From: an archaeon
GTDB taxonomy: Archaea > SpSt-1190 > DYHY01
Direction: 5' to 3'
Length of the DNA stretch: 20,079 bases
Assembly (NCBI GenBank): GCA_043803745.1
Contig: JAZDJS010000050.1
Coordinates: 1-20,079, forward strand
Shown here one piece after another: positions 1 to 14,628 of the stretch. The translations under genes were made by a program, and so were the position numbers. Under the pieces are notes generated by a model, which worked only from the letters and a program-made list of their open reading frames with translations, did not search any database and had not been told where the DNA came from. Positions within the stretch are counted from its first letter, which is position 1; the number at the start of each line of letters is the position of its first letter.

Positions 1-362
1 AAATCCCGACCGTCGCACCAGAAACCCTTCTTTTTTCAAAAGAAGCCTTTCACGGGAAGAAAAGAAAGCGCGCGAGGGTTCCTGAGCGCTAGCGAAGTGC
101 TTAGAGGAGCAAAATCCCGACCGTCGCACCAGAAACCCTTCTTTTTTCAAAAGAAGCCTTTCACGGGAAGAAAAGAAAGCGCGCGAGGGTTCCTGAGCGC
201 TAGCGAAGTGCTCAGAGGAGCAAAATCCCGACCGTCGCCTAACCAGAGCCCTTCTCACTACGTTCGAAGCCGTTGACGGGTTGTCCGTTTGCTTCAAACG
301 GACCTTTTGGTGAAACTTTCCCAAAGTTTCAAGACCGACCGTCGCCTAACCAGAGCCCTTCT
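1..362. repeat. Tandem array: two 111-bp units (1-111, 112-222, one mismatch) plus a third divergent ~107-bp unit; anchor CCGACCGTCGC(CTA)ACCAGARCCCTTCT recurs at about 6, 117, 228 and 335
   Basis: AAATCCCGACCGTCGC starts at 1, 112 and 223. CCGACCGTCGCCTAACCAGAGCCCTTCT is at 228-255 and 335-362. Each unit is built from short hairpins (e.g. CTTCTTTT-ttc-AAAAGAAG, GTCCGTTTG-ctt-CAAACGGAC 283-303, GAAACTTT-ccc-AAAGTTTC 312-330). The array may extend left of the window. Confidence 0.92.
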
Positions 363-377
363 TTTTCCAAAGAAAAC

Positions 378-384
378 TTATAAA
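378..384 (+). promoter_or_regulatory. Archaeal TATA box (TTATAAA, A-rich BRE-like upstream) for the 406-930 gene
   Basis: About 22 nt upstream of ATG 406; similar spacing recurs before most genes in the window. Confidence 0.6.
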
Positions 385-405
385 CGGAATTCGGCTCTTC
401 CCGAA

Positions 406-930
406 ATGAAAACCGCGCTTGATTTGTATGTTGACGAACCAGGGGCTTTCGAGATTCTCGAGTCCCAAGTGAGGGCGGGGCTTGCCGCACCCGAACCGAA
501 TCTGGATGACGAATCCCTTTTCGACGGGGACCTTTTCACGCGGGAGGACCCGTTCAACAAGATAGGCGACTATTATGCGAGAAAGGACGGGGACACGGTC
601 CGGGTATTCGTGAACGCTGCAAAGGTGGTCGTTTCCCTGGAAAAGAGAGGACGGGCTGCTATTGGAGAAACACTCGGCAAGGCTGTCCGCACAGTTGACC
701 CGACCTTCTCAATATACTCGGATCGGAGAGAGATTCTGGACTTTCCGGAGCCGAAGGAGCCTCCCGCTTTCTCCGGAGGCAGGCGCGTCAACATTTATCC
801 GGGCAGCTTGATTTTCCCAGCGGGAACCGCTCTCAGCTTCAGCCTGCCGGCAGAAGCTGGCGAGAGAATCGCCGGAACTGTCACGGAATACATCCTCGCT
901 GTCGGGAACTTTTACGCGAATGAGTTCTGA
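406..930 (+). CDS. Hypothetical protein (174 aa, MKTALDLY...)
   Basis: ORF-track 289..930 re-started at the in-frame ATG 406, because 289-405 runs through the repeat array and the TATA box sits just before 406. No family recognised. Confidence 0.7.
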   Translation: MKTALDLYVDEPGAFEILESQVRAGLAAPEPNLDDESLFDGDLFTREDPFNKIGDYYARKDGDTVRVFVNAAKVVVSLEKRGRAAIGETLGKAVRTVDPTFSIYSDRREILDFPEPKEPPAFSGGRRVNIYPGSLIFPAGTALSFSLPAEAGERIAGTVTEYILAVGNFYANEF

Positions 931-1020
931 GGCCGGTTGTCGGAAATCCGCTGAAAAGATGAACTAACTGACGGCTTTTCCTGACAATTAATAATAAAGT
1001 TCGGGTTCCCGGAAAGGCGG

Positions 1021-2511
1021 ATGGGAAAAAACCCGATTCCGAGGTGCATGAGCACCCAGCACCCGGACAACGTCACGACGCCCTTCTTCGCCGAAAGCCC
1101 CATCCTCGGGGGCGAGGATGAGATAAAGGAGACCTACTACGCCTTCTCGCACCTCGGCTGCACCGAGCAGATGTGGGATTACGAGGGGAAGGAGGTAGAT
1201 AGCTTCGTGATAAAGAAGCTCCTCTCCAAATACCCGGACTTCTTCAGGGGGAAGGAAATCGGCCGGAGCGTCTTCATAACCCCGCGGGTCCCGAATCCGG
1301 AGTTCGAGCGGGATGAGGCGAAGAGCCTGCTGGAGACCCTGGAAAGCATCCCCCGCTCCTTCGACACTGCGCGCCTATTCTATGGAAAAGGCTGCGTCCC
1401 GCCGATATTCGAGGTAATCCTTCCGATGACAACCTCGGCAAAAGCCGTCAACAAAATACATTCCTACTACCGGGATTTTGTCGGGGGAAAGGGCAAGTTC
1501 CTTGTTTCGGGCGAGCGGGTTGCCGACTGGATCGGGGAGTTCAACCCGAAGGAAATTTCCGTAATCCCCCTTCTTGAGGACAGGGAAAGGATGTCGAAGA
1601 CCGGAAGAATAGTGAAGGAATATCTCCGGGACAAGAACCCCCCTTACCAGAGGGTCTTCCTTGCGAGGTCGGACCCTGCGATGAACTACGGGCTTGTCGG
1701 GGCGGTGCTCCTTGCGAAAATCGCTCTTGCGAAACTTGACGGCGTTTCGAAAGACACCGGGATCGAGATACACCCGATAATCGGGGTCGGCTCGGTCGTT
1801 TTCCGCGGGGGGTTTTCCCCCGCAAGGGTGAAGGAAACTGTCGAGGAATATCCGAGCGTCTCGACATACACGATACAATCCGCGTTCAAGTACGACTGGG
1901 CGCCCGGCGAGGTCAGCGAGGCAATCGAGGACGTTTCCGCCGCGGGAAGGAAGCGGGCCCAGCAGGTTTCGGAAGGAGACGAGCGGGAAATCGACAAGTT
2001 AATCGACAAATATTCGCGCAATTACCAAAGGCAGATCCTGAAGCTTGCCAAGATAATAAACAAGGTTTCCGAGCATGTCCCGTCAAAGAGGAAAAGGAAG
2101 CTGCACGTCGGAATCTGGGGATATTCCCGGAGTCTCGGGAAGAAGAAGCTCCCAAGGGCAATAGGCTTCACTTCCGCGCTCTATTCAATCGGGCTTCCGC
2201 CGGAGCTGATAGGGCTGGACTGCCTTGACCGCGCGGACGTTTCCCTCATCGAGAGGTTCCATTCGAACTTCCTTTCGGACATTGGGGAGGCGGCGCGTTT
2301 CGCCAACTTCGGGAGCGGAGCGGTTCCCGAAAAGCTCGGGAAGAAAGTCAGGGACCTTATCGATGTCGAGGCGGACGCCGAGGCGGACGCCGAGCCCGAG
2401 CATGCGAGAATCTCCGGCGAGATATTCAAGAGGCTGAAAAGGAAGGACCATTCAGAGGGGATTTCGGAGCTTGTCGTACGGGCGGGTTCAATCCGCAAGT
2501 TCCTCGGGTGA
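1021..2511 (+). CDS. ppcA: Phosphoenolpyruvate carboxylase, archaeal type
   Basis: 496 aa; N-terminal IPRCMSTQHPDN and the ITPRVPNP, FEVILPMT, RVFLARSDPAMNYG, TIQSAFKYD and LPRAIGF motifs typical of PpcA. Confidence 0.95.
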   Translation: MGKNPIPRCMSTQHPDNVTTPFFAESPILGGEDEIKETYYAFSHLGCTEQMWDYEGKEVDSFVIKKLLSKYPDFFRGKEIGRSVFITPRVPNPEFERDEAKSLLETLESIPRSFDTARLFYGKGCVPPIFEVILPMTTSAKAVNKIHSYYRDFVGGKGKFLVSGERVADWIGEFNPKEISVIPLLEDRERMSKTGRIVKEYLRDKNPPYQRVFLARSDPAMNYGLVGAVLLAKIALAKLDGVSKDTGIEIHPIIGVGSVVFRGGFSPARVKETVEEYPSVSTYTIQSAFKYDWAPGEVSEAIEDVSAAGRKRAQQVSEGDEREIDKLIDKYSRNYQRQILKLAKIINKVSEHVPSKRKRKLHVGIWGYSRSLGKKKLPRAIGFTSALYSIGLPPELIGLDCLDRADVSLIERFHSNFLSDIGEAARFANFGSGAVPEKLGKKVRDLIDVEADAEADAEPEHARISGEIFKRLKRKDHSEGISELVVRAGSIRKFLG

Positions 2512-2520
2512 TGGAATTTC

Positions 2521-3306
2521 TCAGAAAAGGAATGCCCTCGCGGCCGCATAGACCATCACCGCAAGTATCAGTATCAGGACCAGGAGGTCGAAGGAAACCG
2601 TCTGGGCCCATGAGGGCAGGAAGGGCAGGTCGATCAAGAAGAAGCCTTTTCCCCTCCGTTCCTCGGCGACCCGGGCCTCTAGATCCGGAAGATTCTCCCG
2701 GACGACGGTCAGGACGCTCTCGGAAAGGGAATATTTCCCCTCCGAATAAAACTGCTCGGCGAAATAAAGGCTTGAATTGGTCTCGGCGAAAAGCGCGATT
2801 GTCTCGGAATTCTTGATCGCGCCGATCCTTGACGAAACCCTCGAAAGCCTTGACTTGAAATCCTTCAGTTCCGAGGATATTTTCGCGCCCTCCTCGGGGG
2901 AGAAAACGACGACCTTCGCGTATTCCTCGCGGGGGAGGATTCCCTCGCCGGAAAGGGAGACTGTCAGGAAAAACTCCCCGGGAGTCCTCGGGATCAGCAG
3001 GACCTTGGTCGACTGCCTCATCCCCACAATCATCCTTCGCTCGGTCCAGGAAAGCTCCCCTTCGTTCGGCCAGTCCGCCGAGAGTGCGGCGACCCGGCCG
3101 CTCTCCCCCGGCTCGGAAACAATTGTTATCTGGAATTCGACCGACTTGTTGGAAACCGGGACGCTTGCGGAGGAAGGTTCTACGCGCAGATAGCTGAAGC
3201 CCGCTGGGAGGACAAGGAGGAAAAAGAGGAAAGGGACCAGAAGGGCCAGAAGGACCAGAATTGACACAGGCGGTCCGCTTCTTCCAGCCCTTTCTCCGGA
3301 TTCCAT
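2521..3306 (-). CDS. Predicted membrane-anchored surface protein (N-terminal hydrophobic segment, Ig-like beta domain, helical segment, C-terminal TM)
   Basis: Start moved to the in-frame ATG at 3306 (MESGERAG...) so it does not overlap the upstream gene; AAGGAG upstream; hydrophobic segments at both ends. Confidence 0.75.
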   Translation of the reverse strand: MESGERAGRSGPPVSILVLLALLVPFLFFLLVLPAGFSYLRVEPSSASVPVSNKSVEFQITIVSEPGESGRVAALSADWPNEGELSWTERRMIVGMRQSTKVLLIPRTPGEFFLTVSLSGEGILPREEYAKVVVFSPEEGAKISSELKDFKSRLSRVSSRIGAIKNSETIALFAETNSSLYFAEQFYSEGKYSLSESVLTVVRENLPDLEARVAEERRGKGFFLIDLPFLPSWAQTVSFDLLVLILILAVMVYAAARAFLF

Positions 3307-3337
3307 TTTTCCGCGGCTTCTTCTTCTCCTTGCGTCC

Positions 3338-5596
3338 TCAGAACATCCTTCCGAAGGTGAGTATTGCCGCTCCAACAAGGACGACGACGACTCCCGCGAC
3401 AACATATGTGTTGAGCCCGGTTGTCGGGGGCTCGATCCCATACGCCTCCTCGGTATATCTCGCAACTGCGAAAGCTCCCTCTGCGGATTCAAGGGCTTTC
3501 TTGCAGAGGACGTTAGCGGAGTCGTAGTTTCGCTTGTTAAGCTCAGCCATGCATGCCGCAAGAGCCGTCTTGGCATCGTTGACCGCAACCTCGGCCGGAC
3601 CCGCGTCCTTCCCTGAATTCGCAATCCGCTTCACCTCGGCTTCGGCCTGGCTCACCTTCGTCTGCGCCCTTGACGCAATGTCCGCAACCGTCGTGACGTC
3701 GCCAGCTGACGGGGTTATCGAAACCTCGAGGGACTTGGTCAGGCTCCCGGACGAATCCGAAAGGGTCACTGAGAAGGTGCAGGAAACGGTCTTTCCAAGA
3801 GAGTTAACCTTGAATGAGTTCGAATAGCTTCCGCTTTCGGCAAGGGAAATTGACGATGCGTTCAGGAAGGAGGTCCCGGTTATCACGCCGGACGGGCAGG
3901 AATTCTCGACAAGGGGCTTGACGCTCCGCGTAAGGGTTGAGCGGGAAATTACCGAAAAGTCCACGCTAACCGGAGAGTCAGCCTGCACGCCAAGCTCGAC
4001 CCGCTCAGTCGAGAACGAAAAGTCGAAAAGACCGCCGGAAGACCGGGAAATCCGGATGTTCGCGGGAACGCACGACTCCTCGCCCGAGTCAATTGATGCG
4101 CAGAGCGAAAGCCCGTATTCGCCTTCCGTCGAGAATGTGGGGGCAATCTTGACTGGAACCGACCTCTCCTCGGCGGAGGCAAGGGTGAACTGGGTGTCGC
4201 TCGCGAAGCTCACCGCTCCCGCTGCGGAGCCTTTGGAATAAATTGAGAATGCGCCGCTTGAGCTTCCGGTGTTCTTCACCGTTGCAACGAATTCCGCATA
4301 TCCGCCCGGCTCGATTGAGAAGGGAGAATTCCGCGAAAGGGAAATCCTCGGATGGGCGCCCGACGTCTGTCCCGATGAGGTCGAGACAATCAGCTTCTGT
4401 ATCTGGACTTCGCCCGCCGTAGAGAACTCCGCAATCGAAATCTGGTATGTCCCTGCGACAGCAGGAGTCGTTACCGAGACCTTGTCGGTTGCGCCGGCCC
4501 CGATGGATATCTTCCTCGTTTCCGTCCCGTCAATCCGGACCCCTTCGGAAAGGGATTTCACGGTGAATTCGGTCGAGGCGGTGTCAAGGTTCGTTATCGA
4601 GAGGGAGAATGTCCCCTGGATATCGCCGGTCTTGAGGATGTACTCGGAGGGGAAAAGCGCAATCGACGCCTTGAGCTGTTTCAGGTAGTTGACCGAATAG
4701 TCGTATTGGTAGAGTTTGTTTTCGACTGAGAGGAGGGCTGAAAGGGTGTCGACGCAGGAAACATCCGGCTTGATTGTGAAAACGTTCTTGTTGCATCCGA
4801 GGCTGTCAACAATGCTGCCCTGGCAATATGCCTGCCAGCAGAGCGTGTATGCGTCAACCGGCTTGTTCTGGGCCCTGTTGATGACCGCCCTGGGGGAAAG
4901 GAGGAATTGGGAGCCCCTGTAAATCGTTCCGGGCACGTCAATGACCAGGTCATACGTTTCAATGCAGAGCCGGGAGGATGAAGAGCAGGCGCTCCGTTCG
5001 CATCCGCGGCAGTCGACGCAGCAGTTGAGATAGTTCTCGCCGGAATCGCAGACCCTGTTCCCGCATGCCTGATTTGTCCCGTTGATGATTGTTGTTGTCG
5101 TTGTCGATTGTGTCGGGTCGCCGCATGCCGCCGAATAAACGCAGGCCGCTTCCTGGAGGCATCCGGAAGGCGTGCAGGTCCGCTTCTGGAGCATCTGGTT
5201 CTGGGCGCAGGAGGACATTCCGCAGCCCAAATTAGAATATCCGGTGCAGCTGCACTCCGGAAGCTTGTCGCCTATGTTCACCTGGAAAACGTTCGAGAGG
5301 GTGTCGCCACACCGGGCCTGAATGTTGTATGTCTCCTTCTGCGGGGAATAGAAGCTCGCCCTGCCGTTGAGAATCGAGAACGCCCCGACAGGCGCCCCGG
5401 TTGAATTCGTCAGAACGAGCGTTCCGGAATCGCAGGGGGTTACGGTGCATTCGCAGGAAAGTTCGGCGGTGCAGGTTGTCGAGCAGGAAAGGGTTGCCGA
5501 GAATGCCGGAGAGGCGAGAACGATAGTCAGAACGAGCGCAATCAAACTAATTCCTGCCGTCTTGCCAGAGAACGAGAAAAATCCCCTTTCTTCCAT
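3338..5596 (-). CDS. Secreted/membrane-anchored Cys-rich surface protein (752 aa)
   Basis: Signal peptide, Cys-rich modules including CGNRVCDSGENYLNCCVDC, a Thr linker, several beta-sandwich-like segments, a helical segment and a C-terminal TM. TATA-like TTTTTAA about 22 nt upstream. Confidence 0.88.
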   Translation of the reverse strand: MEERGFFSFSGKTAGISLIALVLTIVLASPAFSATLSCSTTCTAELSCECTVTPCDSGTLVLTNSTGAPVGAFSILNGRASFYSPQKETYNIQARCGDTLSNVFQVNIGDKLPECSCTGYSNLGCGMSSCAQNQMLQKRTCTPSGCLQEAACVYSAACGDPTQSTTTTTIINGTNQACGNRVCDSGENYLNCCVDCRGCERSACSSSSRLCIETYDLVIDVPGTIYRGSQFLLSPRAVINRAQNKPVDAYTLCWQAYCQGSIVDSLGCNKNVFTIKPDVSCVDTLSALLSVENKLYQYDYSVNYLKQLKASIALFPSEYILKTGDIQGTFSLSITNLDTASTEFTVKSLSEGVRIDGTETRKISIGAGATDKVSVTTPAVAGTYQISIAEFSTAGEVQIQKLIVSTSSGQTSGAHPRISLSRNSPFSIEPGGYAEFVATVKNTGSSSGAFSIYSKGSAAGAVSFASDTQFTLASAEERSVPVKIAPTFSTEGEYGLSLCASIDSGEESCVPANIRISRSSGGLFDFSFSTERVELGVQADSPVSVDFSVISRSTLTRSVKPLVENSCPSGVITGTSFLNASSISLAESGSYSNSFKVNSLGKTVSCTFSVTLSDSSGSLTKSLEVSITPSAGDVTTVADIASRAQTKVSQAEAEVKRIANSGKDAGPAEVAVNDAKTALAACMAELNKRNYDSANVLCKKALESAEGAFAVARYTEEAYGIEPPTTGLNTYVVAGVVVVLVGAAILTFGRMF

Positions 5597-5680
5597 AAGG
5601 GGTTACTGCGCACCACTGGTTAAAAAGGTTTTCAGTTCGCCCCGGGGCTTTTGGCGGGCGCTCCCCGGGAACACTACGAC

Positions 5681-5690
5681 TTTTTATAAA
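5681..5690 (+). promoter_or_regulatory. TATA box of the tRNA gene
   Basis: TTTTTATAAA ending about 23 nt before the mature tRNA 5' end. Confidence 0.7.
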
Positions 5691-5712
5691 CGACAATTCC
5701 CATTTTTCCCGG

Positions 5713-5787
5713 GGGCTCGTAGCTCAGCTTGGATAGAGCGACTGCCTTCTAAGCAGTAGGTCGTGGGTCCAAATCCCACCGGGCCCG
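5713..5787 (+). tRNA. tRNA-Arg (anticodon TCT), intronless, CCA not encoded
   Basis: Acceptor stem GGGCTCG/CGGGCCC plus discriminator G; D arm GCTC/GAGC with A20 (Arg identity element); anticodon arm ACTGC-CTTCTAA-GCAGT; T arm GTGGG-TCCAAAT-CCCAC. Confidence 0.96.
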
Positions 5788-5790
5788 CTC

Positions 5791-5953
5791 GAATTCGCCC
5801 GGAAAATACATCCGCGAATTCGAGGACCTCGCTACGCACTGCGTGCTGCTCGGCCGCAGAGGAATTCGCCCGGAAAATACATCCGCGAATTCGAGGACCT
5901 CGCTACGCACTGCGTGCTGCTCGGTCGCGTCGAAACCCCTTTTCCCTAAAAGC
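5791..5953. repeat. 71-bp-period tandem duplication (5791-5857 / 5862-5928) just after the tRNA, followed by a partial hairpin-element end (5931-5953)
   Basis: The copies differ at one base (CGGCCGC vs CGGTCGC). Each contains the hairpin GAATTCGC...GCGAATTC. GAAACCCC-TTTT-ccct-AAAA-GC follows. Confidence 0.9.
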
Positions 5954-6025
5954 TCGGAGCGCTGGCGCTGCGCTTTGCAGATTCGATGCGTGCAGATGCA
6001 CGCGCCGCGCAGGAACTTTTCCTTT

Positions 6026-9000
6026 TCACTGGACCTTCCCTATGTAAATCGCCTTCACAAAAGCCGCCGGAACGCTAAGGTATGCGTCCCTCGGATATAT
6101 GAAGACTGAAACCTCGTGCGGTCCGGTTCCCCTGTAGCTGATGTTGCTGAAGGAAATCGTCCTGTTGCCAGTCCATCCGCTCCCTTCCCTCCGAAGCTCT
6201 GAGAACGCAAGCCCCTTCGAAGCGTTCCCGAGGATGAAAAAGTCCAGCGGAACCGCCTTGCTTGAGTTCATCACAAGGGTGCAGTTGTTCCTGTCCGGGA
6301 TTGTGCAGTTCCCGCCGACAACCGAGACCGTGAAGCTCGTTGCAGCTACTTCAAGGGTCTTGACCTCTGACGCCCGGTCGCCGCAGACAGCCTGGATTGA
6401 ATGGTTCCCCGCAAAGGGCGGGTAGAAGGAAATCCCTCCGGACGAATTCGCCTTGAGCTCTATTCTTGAGCCGAGCTTGGCTGATGCGACGTAAACCGTC
6501 CCCAGGGAGCAGTTCGTGAAGCCGTAGAAACACTCGAAATACTGGGTGCAGTTTGCGGTCTGGTTCTCAGGGGTCGGAGTTGGCACGGGCGTCGGGGTCG
6601 GGATTGTGTGGGGTATTTCAATCGTGTAGTTCACCGAGGAAAAGTTCCCGTCGGGAGTCACGGCAGTTGCGTAATACTTGTGCGTTGTTCCGGCAACATA
6701 CAGTCCTACCGTTGCGGAATAGGGAGTCCCCGAATCCTCCCCGACCTTGAGTCCGTCAATGAAGAAGCCTATCTTGGTTACCGCGCCGGAATAATTGCTC
6801 ACGTTCGCGCCAAGGGACACGTTGAAATTGGCGGTTCCTCCGAGATTTATCGTCGACCAGTTGCCGGTGACAATGGGGATGCAGGACGAGTCGTTCGCGC
6901 AGTAGGTCACTGTCGTGAGTCCGCAGATTCCCTCCGTGCATGTCTTGTTGAAAGCCATCTTGAGCTTTGAGCAGGACGCCATCCCGCAGCCAAGCTTCAC
7001 GGGGGTCGCGGCAGTGCTGTTAATGCAGATTTCGGTGCAGTTCTCGCCGGGGCAAGTGAGGGCGACCGCCGAGAGGGCGGTGTAGTTCGTCCAGTTGACG
7101 AGGGTCGACCCGTTGAGGAAGGAGAAGTTGTATTTCCCCTCCTTCGCAACCGGGGCCCTCCATATCCAGTAGAAGGGCGCGACGGCGTCCTGGGTGAGGT
7201 TTGCTGTAACGGGAATTTCAGTAGTGTCGGCATGCTTCATTGTAAGCCGAGGGGTCTGGTAAGGCGTTGTTCCGGTGAGCTGGGTAACGTTGATTGTTGC
7301 TATGCAGCCGGTCGTAAGCTTTTTGTCGGGGGTCGCGGGCTTGACCGAGATGTTCACTGCCGGAAGATCCGTCAGGCAGTTCCAGGCACCCGTTGAGAGG
7401 GCGGTGTAGGTCGTCCAGTTGACGAGGGTCGACCCGTTGAGGAAGGAAAAGTGGTATGGTCCGTCGCTCGCAATCGTAAGGTTCCAGGTCCAGTAGAAGG
7501 GCGCGACGGCGTTCTGCGTGAAATTCTTCGTTACGGGAACGCCCGTTGTCCCGGCATATTTCACTACAAGGCTTTCGCTGCTGTATGCGACAGTGCCGGT
7601 GAGCTGGGTAACGTTGACAAGGACTTTGCAGCCTGTCTTGAGCTCCTTGTTCGGCGTTGCGGGCGTGACCGAAATGTTCACTGCCGGGAGCGCCGGAACA
7701 TCCACCGGGCAGGTTATCGCGACTGTCGATGATGCGGTGTATTGCGTCCAATTGATGATTGCGGTGCCGGACAGGAAGGAGAAGTTGTATGTCCCGTTGT
7801 TGGGAACCGAGACGTTCCAGGTCCAGTAGAAGGGCAGGGCGGCGTTCTGCGCGAGGGTCTTTACCGCGGGGATGTTTGTTGTAATCCCTTTGTCCGTGTT
7901 ATTCACGACAAGGTTCTCGTTCTGGTAAGCCGATGCGCCTGTTTTCTGGGTCACGTTCACCGTAACCTTGCAGCCTGTCTTGAGCCTCTTGTCAGTTGTC
8001 GAGGGCTTTACCGAAATCTCGATGGGGTTGCCCATTGATTTTTCCATGCAGATCGGGACGCCCCTCCAGCAGCAGGAATCGTCGCTGTGGCAGGGGAGGG
8101 AAGTCTCGACCCAGCCGTTCGCAACCTCCTGGTTCGATGCCTCGAGCGTCATGCATTTCCGTTCCTTGCCGTCCGCCGATTTGCAGAGAAGGAGCTGGTC
8201 AAGCGGCGCGTAGCAGAGCTCGTGGTTCGGGCAGCAGGTGTCCTCAAGGGTGCAGGGCTTGAACCAATCCTCGGAATAGAGCCTGTTATTGTCGTCCGGA
8301 TTGACATAATACATCCCCGTCTCGTCCCTGTGGGCGAGGGAAGTTTCCAGGTCAACGCAGATTCGCGTCACGGTTGCGTCGGATTCGCATCCCGCCGGAG
8401 TGTATTCGTCGCCCCCGCAATCCTCCCCTTCGCATTCCTCTTCGTCACCGTCGCCGTTGTCTCCATTGCCCCAGCCGTTCCCTCCGCCGTTGTCACCGGA
8501 AGCCTGGCAGTTCGGGTTCGTCCGTTCATAGCACTGGAGATCCGAGTTTCCGCACGCCGATAAACTTGGTTCTATTTCGCCGAAAGCGGCATTCGCGTCG
8601 AAAGGGTCTTTTTTGCAGCTGTCATCAAAATCGCCGGCTCCGGGTTCCGTTTCCGAGCAAATCCTTTCAACCCCGGCTCCGCTTTTGCAGGTTCCTTCCA
8701 TGCAGACGTAGTCTGCTGAGCATATTCCGGGAGATTCGACAACTAAATCATTATTTGTGAGCGTTCGATGAATTGGCGTTCCTGTGAGATGTGTTCCCGT
8801 GAGTAGAACGCAAGCCCAGTTTCCATCGGGAGATTTTCCGATTCCGCATTCGCTCTCCTGCTCAGCCCTGACTGAAGCGTCAACGCAATCCCCTTCGACA
8901 ATTGCTCCGGCACCGGTGACTGAATAGACGCAGGGGGACCAGGTTCCTGAAATAAGATTGTTCGGATAGCAGGTCTGGTCAGCTCCGGTACATGCTCCGG

Positions 9001-10423
9001 AAGGCACTGCGGTGCCTGGAGCAAGGCAGACTTTCAGTCCGCTTGGAAGGGGGGTGCAGATTCCAGTTCCCCTACACTGTACGGTAGGTGAGCAAGAGCC
9101 GCCCAATGCTCCGGGCGCGGCAGCATACGCAGCTCCGGTTGAACAGGTCGAAACGGTGCCCGTCACGCTCGTGCAATATGCTCCTGTTCCGAGAAGACCT
9201 TCTTCGCATTTTTCAACGTGTATCGTGCAGCCCGGACCAACCATACATGTTCCGGTAGCGCCCCCCGGCGCATCAATAGCGCCTCCGCTTACGCAGCAGG
9301 CGCAGTTATCTCCGCAACCGGGAGTAGTGTATTCTATTCCGTCACAGGCAACTGGAATGTTAGCAGGCCAGAACATCACAGTCCCTCCCCCGGAGGAAGG
9401 CATGCACATTGCGGTGTAATCGGGTGTTGGCGAGTTGGGTAGCTGCAACCAGCTGCAACCAGTTGGATAAGATGTGCAGGTGCAATAGCGGTTATTTCCT
9501 GTTGGCGGATTAAGGAAAACAGAAAGGCTGCCAGTTAAACTGCTCAATTCGTCAACACATCCGACAGGGCAGGTTGCCGGGATTGTGCCCTCGCATAGAT
9601 GATAAGTTGAGGGCGCACTGGAAGGACTCAACCATGAACACGCGCCCAAAGCCGCAGTGTCGCAAGCAACGCTGGCGGGACAGTAGCACATTGTGTTGGG
9701 AGGTTGACTGGCGGGGTCGCAACCAGAGCCGCCTGCAGTTAATCCGGTGCAGTCTTCTGGCGGAATGACACTGTAAAACTTACTACCCTCAGAGCGAGGC
9801 GCCGTGTCCCATCTACAGTCATTGTATTGATTGTTAGCACAGAAACAGTTGTAATAACCCCCTGAGGTGGGGCTTGGGCCATCACAGTAGCAAGAGGTCC
9901 TGGAGGCTCCGCAAAGTGCTCGAGAACTGCAAGAAGCCACTTCTGATATGTGACAAACTCCTACTGCTGTCGCATCCCATCCACAAGAAGCACCTGAGTC
10001 CTGAACATAGCACTTGCTGGACGAAGTTGGTTTGCAGCCTGCGCAAGGACAGGTTGTTCCGGAGCTTCCGCCAGAAACTGATGTGGTTGTAGTTGAACTA
10101 GTGGTTGCAGTTGAAGGGTTGCATTGCTTGCATTTAGAAAATGCAACTCCAAAGCACTCCCAACACCACGTAGATGATGAATCTGCCCAGCCGCAGACTG
10201 AATTTGAAGCGGAATTAGAAGGGCAAGGATTGCTGCTTCCATCAACGTTGCAGAAACAATTTTCGCCAGGGCCAAGTTCCCCAGCAGAACAGCCAGATAT
10301 ACTTTTTTCTTCGGAACACGACCAAGCGAGCCCTCTTTCCCCCCAGACCCCGACGAAAACAACCGCAAAAGCGAGCACAAAAACCAATCCAAGAACTAAA
10401 AGAACCCTTCTGTCGTTAGCCAT
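6026..10423 (-). CDS. Very large Cys-rich secreted/surface protein (about 1465 aa) with three ~108-aa internal repeats
   Basis: Start placed at ATG 10423 (MANDRR...), 27 nt below TTTATTTAAA at about 10450-10459. N-terminal signal/TM, dense Cys N-half, Gly/Asn/Asp/Glu linker, PTPTP linker and many N-x-S/T sequons. Confidence 0.88.
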   Translation of the reverse strand: MANDRRVLLVLGLVFVLAFAVVFVGVWGERGLAWSCSEEKSISGCSAGELGPGENCFCNVDGSSNPCPSNSASNSVCGWADSSSTWCWECFGVAFSKCKQCNPSTATTSSTTTTSVSGGSSGTTCPCAGCKPTSSSKCYVQDSGASCGWDATAVGVCHISEVASCSSRALCGASRTSCYCDGPSPTSGGYYNCFCANNQYNDCRWDTAPRSEGSKFYSVIPPEDCTGLTAGGSGCDPASQPPNTMCYCPASVACDTAALGACSWLSPSSAPSTYHLCEGTIPATCPVGCVDELSSLTGSLSVFLNPPTGNNRYCTCTSYPTGCSWLQLPNSPTPDYTAMCMPSSGGGTVMFWPANIPVACDGIEYTTPGCGDNCACCVSGGAIDAPGGATGTCMVGPGCTIHVEKCEEGLLGTGAYCTSVTGTVSTCSTGAAYAAAPGALGGSCSPTVQCRGTGICTPLPSGLKVCLAPGTAVPSGACTGADQTCYPNNLISGTWSPCVYSVTGAGAIVEGDCVDASVRAEQESECGIGKSPDGNWACVLLTGTHLTGTPIHRTLTNNDLVVESPGICSADYVCMEGTCKSGAGVERICSETEPGAGDFDDSCKKDPFDANAAFGEIEPSLSACGNSDLQCYERTNPNCQASGDNGGGNGWGNGDNGDGDEEECEGEDCGGDEYTPAGCESDATVTRICVDLETSLAHRDETGMYYVNPDDNNRLYSEDWFKPCTLEDTCCPNHELCYAPLDQLLLCKSADGKERKCMTLEASNQEVANGWVETSLPCHSDDSCCWRGVPICMEKSMGNPIEISVKPSTTDKRLKTGCKVTVNVTQKTGASAYQNENLVVNNTDKGITTNIPAVKTLAQNAALPFYWTWNVSVPNNGTYNFSFLSGTAIINWTQYTASSTVAITCPVDVPALPAVNISVTPATPNKELKTGCKVLVNVTQLTGTVAYSSESLVVKYAGTTGVPVTKNFTQNAVAPFYWTWNLTIASDGPYHFSFLNGSTLVNWTTYTALSTGAWNCLTDLPAVNISVKPATPDKKLTTGCIATINVTQLTGTTPYQTPRLTMKHADTTEIPVTANLTQDAVAPFYWIWRAPVAKEGKYNFSFLNGSTLVNWTNYTALSAVALTCPGENCTEICINSTAATPVKLGCGMASCSKLKMAFNKTCTEGICGLTTVTYCANDSSCIPIVTGNWSTINLGGTANFNVSLGANVSNYSGAVTKIGFFIDGLKVGEDSGTPYSATVGLYVAGTTHKYYATAVTPDGNFSSVNYTIEIPHTIPTPTPVPTPTPENQTANCTQYFECFYGFTNCSLGTVYVASAKLGSRIELKANSSGGISFYPPFAGNHSIQAVCGDRASEVKTLEVAATSFTVSVVGGNCTIPDRNNCTLVMNSSKAVPLDFFILGNASKGLAFSELRREGSGWTGNRTISFSNISYRGTGPHEVSVFIYPRDAYLSVPAAFVKAIYIGKVQ
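7049..8023 (-). repeat. Three tandem intragenic ~324-bp (108-aa) domain repeats
   Basis: Units begin (I/V)xISVxPxTxxKxLxTGC at 8023, 7681 and 7357 and share PFYWxW, YxFSFL and NWTxYTA. Nucleotides 7082-7123 and 7406-7447 are nearly identical. Confidence 0.9.
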
Positions 10424-10567
10424 CCTAAGGGATTTTACCACTGAACTAGTTTAAATAAATTTAGCCGGGGCTTCTACCGAGCCTTCCGCGACTTCTGGCG
10501 CTTGGTTAATCGTCGCTGCGGCATGAGAAAATGCCGGAAAAGGGATTCTTTCAGCCCCTTGGAAAAT

Positions 10568-10774
10568 CTGACGGCTTCTTTTCCCTTGAACTGTCCTCTG
10601 AGGAGGAGGGTCCTGTCACATCCATTCGACCTTGCGCCTGATGGCTCCAGATCTCACATGCGTTCGACTTGCTTAAAGCCTGCTGCTAACTGCTTCTTTT
10701 TCCCGTGAACGGCTTTTTCTTTGCAAGAAAAAGGGGTTCCTTCACATGCGTTCGACAACGGGAATCCCGAGGAA
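10568..10774. repeat. Stack of three extra copies of the argS 3' end (10616-10630 degenerate, 10654-10668, 10742-10774) interleaved with two hairpin elements (about 10568-10615 and 10688-10741)
   Basis: TCACATGCGTTCGAC, the reverse complement of the argS stop region, is read directly at these positions (13/15, 15/15 and 32/33 identity to the sequence starting at 11768). Confidence 0.88.
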
Positions 10775-10778
10775 GGGC

Positions 10779-11285
10779 TTAGGACTTGAAAAGGACGGGC
10801 TTCCTGGAAAAGCCAATCTTCCAAGATTTGAAGAACTCCAACAACGGACTATCGCCCGAGGAAGGAACGCTGACTGCTCCGCTCCCAAGGCGGGTCCCGC
10901 CCAAGCGGAAAAGCAGACCTTCCCCGGAAGACCTTCCGAAAAGTGCGTGGGAAAACCTGCTTTTTCCTGTCCCCTCAAGTCCCTTCAAGTCATATGTGTA
11001 GACGACCGAGGGATGAAAGCCGAATTCCGAGGAGAACGCCCTGCCGTTCGGAAGGAATCCTTCGGAAAGCGCGGTCCGGAACAGCGAACTTTTGAAAATT
11101 CCGGAGACTTCCAACCTCACAACATGGAAATTCTTCGCAAGCTTCGGAAGCACGACCGCGTCGGTCTCAACAAGCACAAGAACGTCGACGTCTCTTGGCG
11201 CGCGCTTTCCCCGGACATATGAGCCGAACAATATCGCTTTCAGCACGCCCTTGGCGCGCTCAAGCTTTCTTAATTCCGGGAACAC
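10779..11285 (-). CDS. Minimal nucleotidyltransferase (MNT/MntA-like antitoxin) with an extra C-terminal domain
   Basis: ILFGSYVRG...RDVDVLV matches the GS...DxD pol-beta motif. GTG start with SD GGAGGTAG (11295-11302); overlaps the end of the HEPN gene. Confidence 0.88.
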   Translation of the reverse strand: MFPELRKLERAKGVLKAILFGSYVRGKRAPRDVDVLVLVETDAVVLPKLAKNFHVVRLEVSGIFKSSLFRTALSEGFLPNGRAFSSEFGFHPSVVYTYDLKGLEGTGKSRFSHALFGRSSGEGLLFRLGGTRLGSGAVSVPSSGDSPLLEFFKSWKIGFSRKPVLFKS

Positions 11286-11610
11286 GTTCGGAAACTACCT
11301 CCTCAACGGCGTTCTTGACCTTTTCAGCTTCAGCCCGCTTCAGCCGGAGGTTGTAGCTTCTCCGGTAGACCGAGAACACCTGCTTCATCAGGGAAACCAG
11401 CTCCTTGTCGATCAGTTCAAGGTAGGAAAAGCGCTCCTTGTGGTCCTTCGGGAGAATCTTGTATTTTTCGTATACCAAAAGCGTCCCTACCGTTGCAAGC
11501 GCCTTGAAATAAAGGGTCGCGGAACTGTTACAGTTCCCTCTCTTGAACTCCGACCTTGCCCCGGAAAGGAACTCGTTCAGGTTTTCCAGGAGCTCGGTTC
11601 TTTCATCCAT
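11260..11610 (-). CDS. HEPN domain protein (putative toxin of a HEPN-MNT module)
   Basis: 116 aa, predicted helical; the A..EFKRG...SATLYFKAL, PKDH and YRRSY pattern resembles archaeal HEPN proteins; paired with an MNT gene. Confidence 0.78.
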   Translation of the reverse strand: MDERTELLENLNEFLSGARSEFKRGNCNSSATLYFKALATVGTLLVYEKYKILPKDHKERFSYLELIDKELVSLMKQVFSVYRRSYNLRLKRAEAEKVKNAVEEVVSERVPGIKKA

Positions 11611-11662
11611 GTAAACTGTTTACAAATAAGCTATTAATAAAGCTTTCTGTAAACCGTTTACA
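11610..11662 (-). promoter_or_regulatory. TA promoter: TATA box (TTTATTAATA) flanked by two 15-bp palindromes TGTAAAC-N-GTTTACA
   Basis: Palindromes at 11610-11624 (touching the ATG) and 11648-11662, with identical arms. Confidence 0.8.
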
Positions 11663-11666
11663 TATT

Positions 11667-11767
11667 GGCTTTTCCCGTGAAAGACGGCCGGAGCTTTCGC
11701 AGAGCAGGTGGGTTCCTTTCGCGCTTTCCGTGAACGCTTTTTTTCCTGCAGGAAAAAAAGGGTTCTG
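11667..11767. repeat. Two adjacent hairpin elements immediately downstream of the argS stop
   Basis: CCGTGAAAGAC...GGGTTCC (about 11667-11716) and CCGTGAACGC-TTTTTTTCC-tgca-GGAAAAAAA-GGGTTCTG (about 11721-11767). Confidence 0.75.
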
Positions 11768-13663
11768 TCACATGCGTTCGACAACGGGAATCCCTAGGAA
11801 TGTCAGGCTTGAGCGGAGGGCGAAATAGGCAGCCCGGACAAGAGCGAGCCGCCTCTCCTCATGCTCGGACCCGAGGACCCGGCAGGTCGTGTAGAACTTG
11901 GAAAGTATTGTCGCAAGCTGGAAGGCATATTCGGAAATCCGGGAAATCTCGGTCCGGGTCCCCCAGACCTCCTTTCTCAGGCTTCCGGCAATCCTGACTA
12001 TTTCAGCCGGGAGGAACGCAATCTGCTTCGCCAGAAGATATTCATCCTCCTCAATTCCGGATATGTCGGAGATTTCCGCATTTCCGCCGGCCTTTTCCCG
12101 GCCGGCCTTTTCCAATATCCGGAGGCATCTTGCGAGGGCATACTGGAGATAGGGCGCGCTGTCCCCGTCGAAGGAAAGGGCGTCCTCCCAGCGGAAGGTT
12201 ATCTTCTTCTCCGGCGCGAATTTCAGGAGGGTGTACCTTACCGCGCCGACTCCGACAGCCTCGGCAATCCTTTTCTTCTCCTCCTCGGGGAGGGCCTGGT
12301 TCTTTTTCTCGACTTCCGCGCGCGCTCGCTCGACAGCCTCGTCAAGGACCTCGTCAACCGAAAACCCGACCCAGGTCCCCTTCCTGCCGGAGAATTTCCC
12401 CTCGGGAAGCCAGACGTGCTCGTAGGAAAGGTGGAAGCTCCTTGCCTCTTCAGAGGCAAAGCCGATTTTCCCGAGGATGGAATATACGATCCTCTGGGGG
12501 TGCGCCTGCTCGGCTCCGATGACGTTTATCACAATCTCGTATTTCGGCAGGGAGACCTCGTCTCCCGAGAGGGCGGATTTGCGGACCATCTGCCCATTCG
12601 GCTGCTTTTCGAAATCGGAGAACCTGAACGGGTTCTCGAAAAGACCGAACTTCCACATCTGGAAAGCCACGTCCTTCGCAGCATATGTCGCTGTCCCGTC
12701 GCTCCTGACAAGGACGACGTCGGTATCCTCAAGGTTTTCGAATCCGGGGAAGCCGGAAACGTCGCAGATTATGCATCCGGCCTTTTCGCCGGAATCGGCG
12801 CGCTTGACAACCCCTGTCGCGAGCATTTTCTCGAGGGCCTTGGAGAAAAGCCCCGCGGAGATTATCTCGGACTCGTAAATCTGGAGGTCGTGGAAAATCC
12901 CGAACCGGTATGCGGTCGCATACTGGGCGCGGACGCAGTTTTCGGCGATTTCCCGCGCGCCCGATGCAGCCGGCTCGACCCCCTTTTCCATGTCATGCAT
13001 TATCGCACGGACTGCCGCCTCGACCTCCGGATTCTTCCCGGTTTCGGCCTCGACATCAACGTAAAGGAGCCCGAGATTCTGGTCGAATTTCGGATGCAGC
13101 TTCTCCGCGCCAGGACGGTTCTTAACCCCCCAGTAGACCTTCGCAACCTGGAGCCCGAGGTTGTCGATATAGTCCATCTTGGTCACCAGGTATCCTGCGC
13201 CGGAAAGCACCCGGGAAAGCGTGTCCCCGAGAACCGCGTTCCGCGCATGCCCGATGTGCCAGGGCTTGTTCGGGTTCACCGAGGGGAATTCGACAAGAAC
13301 GCTTTTCCCGGAAAATGCGCGCGATTTGCCGTAATTCTCGCCGGCGGAAACCGCTTCGGAAACCGCGCGGGAAAGGAGCTCGCTCTTTTTGGAGAAGAAA
13401 TTCAGGTAGCCGCCCTTGTTCTCGACCCGCTCAATCAGGGGGAATTCCGGAAGCCTGATCGAGGCAATCAGGTCCTCCGCTATTCTGAAGGGCGCCCGCC
13501 TCTTCTCGCGCGCAAGCTCGAACGCAACGGAAGAACTGAGGTCGGCTCCGTCCGAAGCATCCTTCTGCGGGATCGCGAGCTTTTCCTTCGAAACGCCGAG
13601 CGCGGCGGAAACCTGCGAAACGAACTCGTCCCAGACGGGAATTTTATCAGCCATTTCAATCAT
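11768..13663 (-). CDS. argS: Arginine--tRNA ligase
   Basis: SVNPNKPWHIGHARN (HIGH motif), RSDGTATYAAKD, KFSGRKG, FDGDSAPYLQYA and C-terminal LGIPVVERM. Start is ATG 13663 or 13654; TATA-like TATAATAA at about 13691-13698. Confidence 0.97.
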   Translation of the reverse strand: MIEMADKIPVWDEFVSQVSAALGVSKEKLAIPQKDASDGADLSSSVAFELAREKRRAPFRIAEDLIASIRLPEFPLIERVENKGGYLNFFSKKSELLSRAVSEAVSAGENYGKSRAFSGKSVLVEFPSVNPNKPWHIGHARNAVLGDTLSRVLSGAGYLVTKMDYIDNLGLQVAKVYWGVKNRPGAEKLHPKFDQNLGLLYVDVEAETGKNPEVEAAVRAIMHDMEKGVEPAASGAREIAENCVRAQYATAYRFGIFHDLQIYESEIISAGLFSKALEKMLATGVVKRADSGEKAGCIICDVSGFPGFENLEDTDVVLVRSDGTATYAAKDVAFQMWKFGLFENPFRFSDFEKQPNGQMVRKSALSGDEVSLPKYEIVINVIGAEQAHPQRIVYSILGKIGFASEEARSFHLSYEHVWLPEGKFSGRKGTWVGFSVDEVLDEAVERARAEVEKKNQALPEEEKKRIAEAVGVGAVRYTLLKFAPEKKITFRWEDALSFDGDSAPYLQYALARCLRILEKAGREKAGGNAEISDISGIEEDEYLLAKQIAFLPAEIVRIAGSLRKEVWGTRTEISRISEYAFQLATILSKFYTTCRVLGSEHEERRLALVRAAYFALRSSLTFLGIPVVERM

Positions 13664-13716
13664 CGCCAACCTGAAATCCGGAAAGCTTGCTTATTATACT
13701 TTTGAAGAACTATTCG

Positions 13717-13748
13717 GGGGCGGGAAAATCCCGCCCCGTCAAAAAAAA
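13717..13748 (-). terminator. Oligo-T tract plus 9-bp GC hairpin downstream of the poly-Lys micro-ORF
   Basis: A8 at 13741-13748 (U8 on the minus strand, directly after TAA) and GGGGCGGGA-aaa-TCCCGCCCC at 13717-13737. Confidence 0.55.
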
Positions 13749-13775
13749 TTACTTTTTCTTTTTCTTTTTTGCCAT
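13749..13775 (-). CDS. Putative micro-peptide MAKKKKKK (8 aa)
   Basis: ATG GCA AAA AAG AAA AAG AAA AAG TAA, with an in-frame stop just upstream. SD-like AGGGGGTTGA 8 nt before the ATG, TATA-like TTATTTATA at 13833-13841 and a T-tract after the stop. Confidence 0.5.
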   Translation of the reverse strand: MAKKKKKK

Positions 13776-13871
13776 TTAAGAAGTCAACCCCCTTTGATTT
13801 TGTCGTTATGACATCCTAAACCGACGACCAAGTATAAATAAGTGTTTAATCAGGGAAGACATATCGATGTG

Positions 13872-13895
13872 CAAATGTTCCATTTGGAACGTTTG
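13872..13895. promoter_or_regulatory. Near-perfect 24-bp palindrome in the divergent promoter region (possible operator)
   Basis: CAAATGTTCCA-tt-TGGAACGTTTG (10 of 11 arm positions match). Confidence 0.45.
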
Positions 13896-13951
13896 AAGAG
13901 CGTTTGAAAATAGGAAAACAATAAAACCTTCCGGATGCGGGAGCCCCGCAT

Positions 13952-14533
13952 ATGGGAAGAACGCTCGGCGTTTCCGAAACTCTCGCACTCGCCGAGAAGC
14001 ACGGGCTTGCCGTTGCAAGAATCTTTTCGGCGGATACGGCGGAATTCCCGGTTTTCGTCAAGCCGGACATCTCGGGGCACAAGAGCGACAGGGGGCTGGT
14101 TTTCCTTGCGAACGACAAAGGGGAGCTTGCCGAAGCAGTCGGGAAAATCTCCCCGGACTCGAATCCGATAATACAGGAAAGGCTTTCCGGGACCGAACTC
14201 ATTCTCGGGGCGAAGAAGGACCCGGTATTCGGAACGGTCGCCCTTGCGGGGATAGGGGGGACCCTTGCGGAGGCATATTCCGACGCAGCGGTTGGCGTAA
14301 CGCCCCTTTCCGAAGAGGATGCGCTAAGGATGATTGACTCGCTGAAGGGGCAGAAAATACTCTCGGGATTCAGGGGGAAACCGGCAGTTGACAGGGCTGC
14401 CCTCGCCCGCGCAATAGTCCTTGTGGGGAAAATGGCTGATGCGGAAGGACTTGCCGAGCTCGACCTCAATCCGGTTATTGCGGACGGGGAGAGGATTGTT
14501 GCTGTCGATGGGCGCGCGGTTGTTTGTGATTGA
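13952..14533 (+). CDS. Acetate--CoA ligase (ADP-forming) family ATP-grasp subunit, stand-alone beta-like
   Basis: FPVFVK, HKSDRGLV, ELILGAKKDPVFG, LSGFRGKPAVD and ELDLNPV...AVDGR motifs of the ACD ATP-grasp domain. Confidence 0.88.
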   Translation: MGRTLGVSETLALAEKHGLAVARIFSADTAEFPVFVKPDISGHKSDRGLVFLANDKGELAEAVGKISPDSNPIIQERLSGTELILGAKKDPVFGTVALAGIGGTLAEAYSDAAVGVTPLSEEDALRMIDSLKGQKILSGFRGKPAVDRAALARAIVLVGKMADAEGLAELDLNPVIADGERIVAVDGRAVVCD

Positions 14534-14628
14534 ATAGGCAACCTGCTTCTTTTTGACCGTAAACGACTTTTTCTAGCGAGAAAAAGGGGTTTGTCGATGG
14601 GCGCGCGGTTGTTTGTGATTGAATAGGC
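14503..14628. repeat. Perfect 37-bp direct repeat (14503-14539 / 14592-14628) of the ACD gene 3' end flanking a single 52-bp hairpin element (14540-14591)
   Basis: TGTCGATGGGCGCGCGGTTGTTTGTGATTGAATAGGC occurs twice; the insert reads AACCTGCTTCTTTTTGA-CCGTAAACGAC-TTTTTCT-agcg-AGAAAAA-GGGGTT. Confidence 0.93.

Follow-up and report, generated by a model that had tools for sequence, protein, structure and literature searches.

The genome of an archaeon (GenBank assembly GCA_043803745.1; 1.23 Mb in 51 contigs, 54% G+C) carries a dispersed family of hairpin elements of about 50 nt, and several copies lie in contig C50, whose entire 20,079 bases are the window analyzed here. The element family is real, it is new relative to Rfam and to the literature we searched, and it is at home in the 3′ flanks of stable-RNA genes (tRNA and 5S) and of some protein genes, both here and, patchily, in other small archaeal genomes. 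The element itself appears to reach new sites, and the ends of tRNA genes beside it are often duplicated outward; this duplication is a lineage trait that is independent of the element and also occurs around unrelated short modules. As to its origin, we lean, with somewhat less than even confidence, toward a host replication or repair route for which the element serves as cargo and hotspot. Below, G000 denotes this genome, G001 a relative from the same genus, and G002 to G005 further relatives; completeness is 90% for G000 and 84 to 94% for the five screened relatives.

The element family and its position

Copies were detected with an nhmmer profile built from 20 clear copies, which gave 37 matches in G000 at E < 0.1, and with a covariance model (R1) built from 25 copies, which gave 38 matches at E ≤ 0.01. 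The initial annotation of the window had proposed a dispersed hairpin family and had named a covariance scan as the check; the scan bears the family out, both by the 38 copies in G000 and by copies in relatives (13 in G001, 4 in G003, and 2 in G004). R1 found no copy in G002 or in 12 genomes from two other families of the class. It matched 8 of 41 genomes at E ≤ 0.01 and, in a wider archaeal sample, 19 of 151 genomes at E ≤ 0.001 spread across many families, and the 11 distant copies that were inspected are built alike and come after tRNA or 5S ends, two of them lying within 23S rRNA genes. No family in Rfam (release 15) matches the element; the Rfam matches in the window are to tRNA only, and permissive scans returned chance-level hits. 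We found no description of the element in the full-text literature searched, subscription journals and supplementary files lying outside that search.

Ten motif positions had been listed for the window. Six are strong copies under R1: 18–68 (+, 49.2 bits), 129–179 (+, 49.2 bits), 243–292 (+, 31.7 bits, with a hairpin that is not T rich), 10690–10742 (−, 59.3 bits), 11715–11768 (−, 54.6 bits), and 14544–14595 (−, 42.8 bits). A seventh, listed at about 350, is a weak or partial copy at 350–415 (+, 19 bits, E = 0.007). The other three did not reach significance: the listed partial copy at about 5931 went undetected by R1, and those at about 11716 and 10615 are degenerate (11662–11714 [−], matched by R1 over 11662–11699, 9.5 bits, E = 0.88; 10543–10616 [−], 6.1 bits, E = 4.9, element-like by eye). 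The 11-mer core, with at most one mismatch, occurs 4 times against 0.50 expected, a count of 4 being reached in 1 of 100 shuffles. The scan of the window was run with filters off, and five of its six strong copies were training rows; the model is validated by independent copies elsewhere in G000 and in other genomes.

At least 16 of the 38 copies in G000 come no more than 350 nt after a co-oriented tRNA or 5S gene, often from the first base past the RNA. Nine more come after the ends of co-oriented open reading frames (ORFs), two are upstream of tRNA-Ser, and one faces tRNA-His; the remaining 10 have no assigned gene, and several of these follow tRNA-end copies at contig ends. The initial annotation had associated the family with duplicated gene 3′ ends. 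The repeats are indeed present, but at two of the four loci in the window the duplicated ends are tRNA ends, and most copies are found in tRNA or 5S 3′ flanks. Archaeal oligo(dT) terminators are described as runs of at least five T's right after genes, usable in both directions (PMC2253867), and 25 of the 38 copies similarly place a T-run right after a co-oriented RNA gene or ORF end. Either strand of the element shows a T-tract first, namely, the T-rich arm on the sense strand and the T-rich complement of the tail on the other. The element is therefore probably an end-of-transcript, non-B-DNA module, and it may act as a two-way end-of-transcript or 3′-end-protecting signal that would also be a non-B DNA obstacle. 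Two tRNA genes missed by ARAGORN lie ahead of an element copy or variant: at C21:52925–53040 the Rfam match spans 115 nt (with a long insertion) and is followed by an element copy, and at C18:32250–32350 a long insertion in the anticodon region, seen by eye, is followed by an element variant.

The element starts sharply at (CCAG/CTCC)-AACCC; a T-rich arm that pairs with an A-rich arm comes next, then a core of CGTT.ACGG, and then a purine tail. Conserved flanks around a compensating stem had been claimed for it, and the alignment agrees: the 9-bp helix is 90% paired, with pairing kept despite sequence change, compared with 47 to 70% in slid-window controls. Double changes fill 43 cells versus 14.8 in shuffles, and none of 500 shuffles was as high. 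A possible outer helix would pair (G/C)AAC with GTT(C/G), switching between G:C and C:G among subfamilies. The earlier description had overlooked the tail, which is a mirror image of the 3′ arm and whose G-among-A interruptions track the T-rich 5′ arm in parallel register. In 26 nonredundant copies from four genomes, the tail compared with the parallel complement of the 5′ arm scores 7.69 of 10 versus 6.76 ± 0.18 when shuffled (0 of 5,000 shuffles as high); a direct-repeat relation between tail and arm is weak in the same copies (6.0 versus 5.73; 396 of 5,000). These 26 were kept from 41 rows after dropping 9 unparsed rows, subfamily-B rows, repeated arm/tail pairs, and rows lacking a pyrimidine-rich arm. 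A second set of 10 copies from four distant genomes gave 8.8 versus 7.15 ± 0.36 (0 of 5,000). Because of the mirror tail, the purine tract could pair with its Watson-Crick partner and also be contacted by a third strand, the arrangement of an intrastrand triplex or H-DNA; mirror symmetry is what a third strand requires on a purine-pyrimidine duplex, and copying does not produce it. A pyrimidine arm, a purine arm, and a third tract in mirror/parallel register also make up the sequence pattern of the bacterial intrastrand-triplex (PIT/TM) repeats. The sequence thus points to an element that may fold into an intrastrand triplex. Variants at C26:19646–19720, C15:39353–39440, and C6:5016–5140 of G000 carry a 33-nt two-hairpin insertion exactly within the core (CGTT|ACGG) and retain the mirror tail.

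Duplicated flanks and turnover between genomes

Direct repeats adjoin the AACCC end of the window copies, and a repeat search located them, to within a few bases, where the initial annotation had put them. Genome wide, for 21 of the 37 copies found by nhmmer a stretch of at least 12 nt from the 40 nt upstream recurs exactly no more than 400 nt away, compared with 2.1% of 1,000 random positions and 17 of 1,246 (1.4%) ends of long ORFs used as proxies for gene ends. An excess of flanking duplications, the lack of which had been named as a refutation, is thus present. The element lies inside or beside structures in which 12 to 60 nt of local sequence (D) stand on both sides of a 30- to 100-nt insert (X); D can be a gene 3′ end, the 5′ part of a tRNA with its promoter, or a promoter, and the arrangement grows from D-X-D to D-X-D-X-D. 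Spacing is about 89 to 142 nt in seven such cases. Outside the window, D-element-D was seen with D of 52 nt (L039), 59 nt (L053), 40 nt (L250), 34 nt (L245), and 30 nt, the last being a tRNA-Val 5′ part (L246); cases with D of 30 to 59 nt come from G001, G004, G027, and G030. Host genes had been said to remain intact, and one gene copy does stay whole beside the duplications.

Bases 1–21 (+) of the window are the 3′ end of a tRNA-Gly(gcc) gene truncated by the contig start; they are identical to the end of tRNA-Gly(gcc) in G001 (L046), and this tRNA is not in the ARAGORN list for G000. The four duplicated flanks at 1–355 are for this reason recognizable as copies of a tRNA 3′ end. Element copy 1 stands immediately 3′ of the tRNA end, and it is followed by a second module, a CTGA..GAAG hairpin that looks K-turn-like by eye (79–98 and again 190–209, +), lying between the element and the next tRNA-end copy. 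Tandem Repeats Finder (TRF) and the repeat search place a tandem array of period 111 and 2.1 copies at 1–238 (+), with the tRNA end, the element, and the second module as its unit (repeat pair 1–111/112–222, 99%). Element copy 3 follows a variant tRNA-end copy at 228–255, which recurs at 335–362 (28 nt, 100%) ahead of the weak fourth copy. The second module occupies the equivalent position at tRNA-Ala, tRNA-Thr, and 5S loci, where it lies inside a copied T-loop or a copied 5S end. Small hairpins of this form (CTGA-GC-loop-GC-GAAG, with tandem G.A pairs) recur across G000, including at C51:18776–18841, C49:54768–54843, and C36:30838–32465; many are just upstream of ORFs, and they are found in the copied T-loop of tRNA-end copies. 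At tRNA-Arg(tct) (5713–5788 [+]; ARAGORN, Rfam), a tandem duplication of period 71 begins 3 nt past the gene (5791–5928 [+]; TRF, repeat search), its two 67-nt copies (5791–5857 and 5862–5928, 99%) being spaced by 71 nt; the orthologous tRNA in G001 also has an adjacent 83-nt array.

The other two loci are protein-gene ends. An element copy (11715–11768) begins at the stop codon of the arginyl-tRNA synthetase (ArgRS) gene (11768–13669 [−]; Pfam tRNA-synt_1d, DALR_1, and Arg_tRNA_synt_N) and is followed by the degenerate second element at 11662–11714. The last 15 nt of ArgRS (11768–11782 in the gene) are found again at 10742–10756, as part of a 27- to 33-nt 3′-end copy (10742–10774) that precedes the element at 10690–10742, and two additional copies that include the stop codon lie at 10654–10668 (−, 100%) and 10616–10630 (−, 87%), the latter and fourth being followed by the degenerate copy at 10543–10616. 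ArgRS end and element together form a 47-nt repeat pair (10728–10774/11754–11800, 91%) whose members are 1,026 nt apart. Between them, as if inserted with a long duplication, lies a two-gene insert (10779–11610 [−]) of a small ORF, which matched no family, and an ORF with a nucleotidyltransferase domain (Pfam NTP_transf_2, 23.7 bits); the cassette is possibly an MNT/HEPN-type pair. At the fourth locus, the final 31 nt of an ATP-grasp domain gene (13952–14533 [+]; Pfam ATP-grasp_5) plus 6 nt are duplicated. One 37-nt copy (14503–14539, +) is at the end of the intact gene, and the other (14592–14628 [+], 100% identical) ends 3 nt ahead of the stop of a convergent ORF (14632–15219); the two frame the element at 14544–14595, which has the orientation of that ORF. 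The exact 37-nt repeat matched no stretch in metagenome contigs.

Duplication of tRNA ends was then scored directly, as a repeat of at least 12 exact nucleotides from the last 22 + 4 nt of the tRNA within 450 nt downstream, or of the first 28 nt within 450 nt upstream, with the wrong sides as controls. For G003, G004, G005, and G019, scoring was limited to the 30 best tRNA loci of each genome, and loci with flanks below 300 nt or duplicate tRNAs were dropped. A downstream copy of the 3′ end was found at 20 of 40 loci in G000, 12 of 41 in G001, 5 of 26 in G003, and 11 of 29 in G004, and an upstream copy of the 5′ end at 7 of 40, 6 of 41, 0 of 26, and 1 of 29, respectively. G005, from a family without the element, had 3 of 22 and 2 of 22, and G019, an unrelated complete archaeon, had 0 of 29 for both. 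Wrong-side counts for the two tests were 0 and 0 in every genome except G004 (1 and 0). In G000, 7 of the 14 tandem arrays of period at least 25 touch tRNA 3′ ends. The last tRNA-end copy abuts the element in the arrays of tRNA-Arg(tcg), tRNA-Pro(cgg), and tRNA-Glu(ctc), so that in these arrays another short module is the insert and the element is a resident flank. Modules in tRNA trailers share motifs across unrelated tRNAs (Lys and Ile in G001). Two different tRNA-Thr genes of G000 are followed by one and the same trailer module (about 60 nt, 100% identity), which is tandem at one of them (C51:32173–32235 and C19:14482–14754), and tRNA-Val trailers are common to three loci.

Most tRNA-end copies (43 of 57) lack CCA, as in the gene, and mostly carry the gene's own trailer, which makes them DNA-level events. 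Retro-copying of mature tRNA, as in SINEs, was rejected: 5 of 57 copies gain CCA, 4 of these 5 run into the 5′ end of the element, and no reverse transcriptase (RT) was found in G000. A terminal inverted repeat of GAACCC and GGGTTC was also rejected, since GGGTTC follows the T-arm of the local tRNA (for example, GTCAC in one tRNA-Ala and GCCAC in the other) and is absent at 5S and protein-gene copies. A minihelix in which a trailer module and a tRNA-end copy mimic an acceptor stem applies to tRNA-Pro only and is not general. Transduction from a donor copy fails because downstream flanks are shared only between paralogous tRNA loci, and kilobase-scale islands fail because only a few 16-nt tRNA-end copies lie far from their gene, and these come from the same arrays on other contigs. 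Contigs break within tRNA-end arrays (the start of C50, the ends of C10 and C14, and the starts of C19 and C24), splitting off tRNA-Gly(gcc), and copy numbers of identical units are consequently lower bounds.

Occupancy by the element differs between related genomes, in which a search for empty alleles had been proposed. At the ATP-grasp junction of G001, the same two convergent genes abut without the element, and a different 59-nt module is present there in two copies, with the other gene's end standing three times around them; the inserts at this junction are independent in the two genomes. Below ArgRS, G000 has two elements and four gene-end copies, L001 has the other module with its own duplication, and L002 has neither. 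Among orthologous tRNAs, only G000 carries the element at Leu(gag) and Ala(ggc), and only G001 carries it at Gly(ccc) and Val(gac). The module of about 59 nt in G001 has a CCTTT-ACG-AAAGG hairpin, is unrelated to the element, and is framed by 17- to 20-nt copies of gene 3′ ends (L010 [G001 C10], 1977–2135; L001, 4842–4950).

Possible routes of duplication

The initial annotation was right that the window holds neither terminal inverted repeats nor a transposase, and it placed the enzyme elsewhere, naming among others the HUH, tyrosine recombinase, Cas1, and RT types. Pfam profiles for Y1 HUH (RAYT; PF01797), tyrosine recombinase (Phage_integrase, PF00589), Cas1 (PF01867), and RT (RVT_1, PF00078) had no match in G000, a genome that is 90% complete, and neither did TnpB. 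RT was likewise unmatched in G001, G003, G004, and G005 and was present only in G002, which is without the element; tyrosine recombinase was unmatched in G002 to G005 and present only in G001. Ku and Prim-Pol had no matches in 17 genomes. The proposal of a single-stranded DNA transposon recognized by its fold therefore stands in part: there is a family, an excess of long flank duplications, and variable occupancy, but these enzymes were not found and the duplication is not specific to the element. A CRISPR array with a 36-nt repeat occurs in G001 (C9:64605–65089 and the end of C3). The sole gene resembling a DDE transposase in G000 (C15:86409–86936, between tRNA-Ile and tRNA-Leu) is IS5-like, falls below NCBIfam cutoffs, and was rejected as a source since it is single copy and has no ends in common with the element; it scored 22.8 bits against a cutoff of 100 for the IS1634 family (NF033559), and IS5 fits it best.

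Under the host replication or repair route that we favor, short sequences would be inserted with long, variable target duplications, and this is the weakest step of the proposal. Template switching, or repair of widely staggered breaks, at structure-prone and heavily transcribed sites are candidate routes. The element would then spread slowly as non-autonomous cargo and not by way of an HUH, integrase, or Cas1-type enzyme. Several points weigh against this account. A quirk of host repair must recur in distant lineages, which favors instead an element that provokes the events itself, or a dedicated enzyme that went unrecognized. No donor copy identical to any recently duplicated site was found, and the absence of an enzyme is not proven in genomes that are 84 to 94% complete. 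The triplex is read from sequence by shuffle tests that take no account of how copies are related, the core fits either a 3-bp mini-hairpin or the 3′ half of the outer helix, and RNAfold energies are ordinary (z of −0.06 to −1.9). Termination is deduced from position and T-tracts only, and element-like copies interrupt 23S rRNA genes in two distant genomes (insertions of 81 and 88 nt), which is hard to reconcile with an obligatory terminator. The two 23S insertions are at about 116–196 of L253 (G017; model position 2882/2883, closed by an 8-bp inverted repeat) and about 124–211 of L254 (G037; position about 2571).

A true non-autonomous transposon, in which an enzyme acting in trans recognizes the folded element and makes widely staggered cuts, by preference at tRNA loops and gene ends, that leave 12- to 60-nt duplications, with the other modules using the same enzyme, is the rival we take most seriously, and we still judge it unlikely. 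The sharp 5′ end with D abutting AACCC within 0 to 10 nt speaks for it, as do D-element-D layouts at protein-gene junctions unrelated to one another, seen in at least five genomes (distant ones included), the insertions within 23S rRNA genes, the order of tRNA 5′ fragment, element, and whole tRNA in three genomes, and a patchy phyletic distribution. Long variable target duplications of 8 to 514 bp also have a precedent in IS1634/IS1549, as reported in PMC2266710. Yet of the enzymes sought G000 yielded only the IS5-like gene, the presence of RT or integrase does not track the element across five relatives, and the 3′ end of the element is undefined. Copies within a genome are 75 to 90% alike and not near-identical, which gives no sign of a recent burst, and in several arrays the element is a flank and not the insert. 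A broader possibility, which we regard as doubtful, is an undiscovered insertion mechanism in DPANN-type archaea that moves short hairpin modules (the element, the K-turn-like module, tRNA-trailer modules, and even the two-gene cassette) with 12- to 60-nt duplications and a preference for tRNA, 5S, and 23S loops and ends; the element would be its recognition structure or trigger.

The repeated ends might themselves be functional, as a design for precursor-RNA processing in which they would act as alternative 3′ exons or decoys, or would feed the formation of non-canonical introns that the broad-specificity splicing endonuclease of these archaea handles. The layout of tRNA, element, hairpin, module in a split T-loop copy, and tRNA end recurs at many tRNAs in several genera, the T-loop and D-loop hold clusters of break points, many copies match the gene end at 100% identity although spacers are unconserved, and an endonuclease that splices with broad specificity is described from ultrasmall archaea (PMC3239211). 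Nevertheless, the copies come and go: that of tRNA-Ala(cgc) is present in G000 and G003 and missing from G001, and that of tRNA-Gly(gcc) is decayed in G001 and amplified in G000. Duplications of this kind are also seen at the ends of protein genes and at promoters, to which such RNA logic does not apply. We find this explanation rather improbable. Scars of site-specific integration, left by tyrosine-recombinase plasmids or viruses that entered tRNA genes and decayed to about 100 nt, are more improbable again. The 3′ parts of tRNA genes are classic attachment sites and integration leaves partial tRNA copies, as reported in PMC9897764, and one integrase gene of G001 has tRNA-Cys and an element copy about 550 nt away. 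But no tyrosine recombinase was found in G000 or G002 to G005, the copies are only 30 to 250 nt away with no kilobase-scale intermediates seen, and 5′-end copies exist too. Moreover, the targets (many tRNAs, 5S, protein-gene ends, and promoters) imply no single attachment sequence. We give almost no credence to repeats created or mis-sized by short-read assemblers. Contigs that end in arrays (the window start, C10/C14, and C19/C24) do leave the copy numbers of identical units uncertain, but collapse cannot yield D-X-D around a unique X, diverged copies (87 to 98%) exist, and the pattern recurs in genomes that different projects assembled independently but not in an unrelated genome.

Comparison with known systems and significance

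Among known repeats, REP/BIME sequences mobilized with RAYT are, like the element, short extragenic palindromes at gene ends with many copies and no coding capacity, and the element fits this description with its imperfect palindromes, 38 copies, and 90% paired hairpin. It differs in that no Y1 HUH gene was found in G000, and we know of no REPs with 12- to 60-nt flank duplications, a link to tRNA ends, or a mirror tail. Miniature inverted-repeat transposable elements (MITEs) are similarly non-autonomous, structured, dispersed, about 50 to 100 nt long, and flanked by direct repeats. However, the element lacks terminal inverted repeats at its protein-gene copies, has no parent insertion sequence, and has a variable 3′ end, and in place of the fixed short target duplication of a MITE its duplications vary from 12 to 59 nt, far longer than usual. 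In CRISPR spacer integration and casposons, Cas1 inserts short DNA with a duplication and forms arrays. The element shares the short insertion with a duplication of about 15 to 37 nt and the D-X-D-X-D appearance, but Cas1 was not found in G000, the duplications beside the element are not of a fixed length, and the X units within an array are identical. Integron attC and other tyrosine-recombinase sites go with an integrase gene, and PF00589 had no match in G000 and was present in only one of five relatives.

IS1634/IS1549 is the only well-known case of long variable target duplications (8 to 514 bp; PMC2266710), and there too the mechanism is unexplained; unlike the element, these are sequences of 1.5 to 2 kb with a DDE transposase and inverted ends. 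Integrative elements of Thermococcaceae leave a whole tRNA gene and a partial 3′ copy as direct repeats, as seen in G000, but 9 to 23 kb apart and with an integrase (7 cases in 20 genomes, as given in PMC9897764), whereas the copies in G000 are 30 to 250 nt apart, involve up to half of the tRNA genes, and come with no integrase found. A structural parallel comes from the bacterial PIT/TM repeats, two hairpins with a common homopurine strand for which an association with local instability of the genome has been described (Holder et al. 2015, PMC4666352). As described there, they too are short dispersed intergenic repeats with raised local rearrangement and no enzyme known; they are G/C rich, untied to tRNA or rRNA 3′ ends, and their instability was seen as deletions and variable regions. 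The element, on the other hand, has A/T-rich tracts, a conserved AACCC and CGT..ACG core, archaeal hosts, and long direct flank duplication. Compared with the oligo(dT) terminators described in PMC2253867, which need no hairpin or conserved core, it adds both, together with the mirror tract.

The genes of the window are archaeal in look, including, by Pfam, an archaeal-type phosphoenolpyruvate (PEP) carboxylase, ArgRS, and a PEP synthase, and the closest ArgRS loci are in records labeled Micrarchaeota or Micrarchaeia. A 1,471-codon ORF (6026–10441, −) has a weak match to a bacterial Ig-like domain and contains an internal repeat of 324 nt (7071–7687, 1.9 copies, 76% identity).

For practical purposes, the arrays break metagenome assemblies at tRNA loci, and pseudo-tRNA fragments from them may be miscalled by annotation pipelines. 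If the reading favored here is correct, small-genome archaea would carry a conserved element that marks the ends of their most heavily transcribed genes, and that element would offer a rare three-way sequence covariation pointing to a triple helix under selection. It would also be central to an insertion process whose long, variable duplications are not explained by any known enzyme. Should that process instead belong to an undiscovered mechanism in DPANN-type archaea, the latter would be the source of partial tRNA copies and rRNA-gene insertions, and perhaps of non-canonical introns and split tRNA genes. The intact genes and fragments that the process leaves side by side are the raw material that has been proposed for the origin of non-canonical tRNA introns and split tRNA genes.

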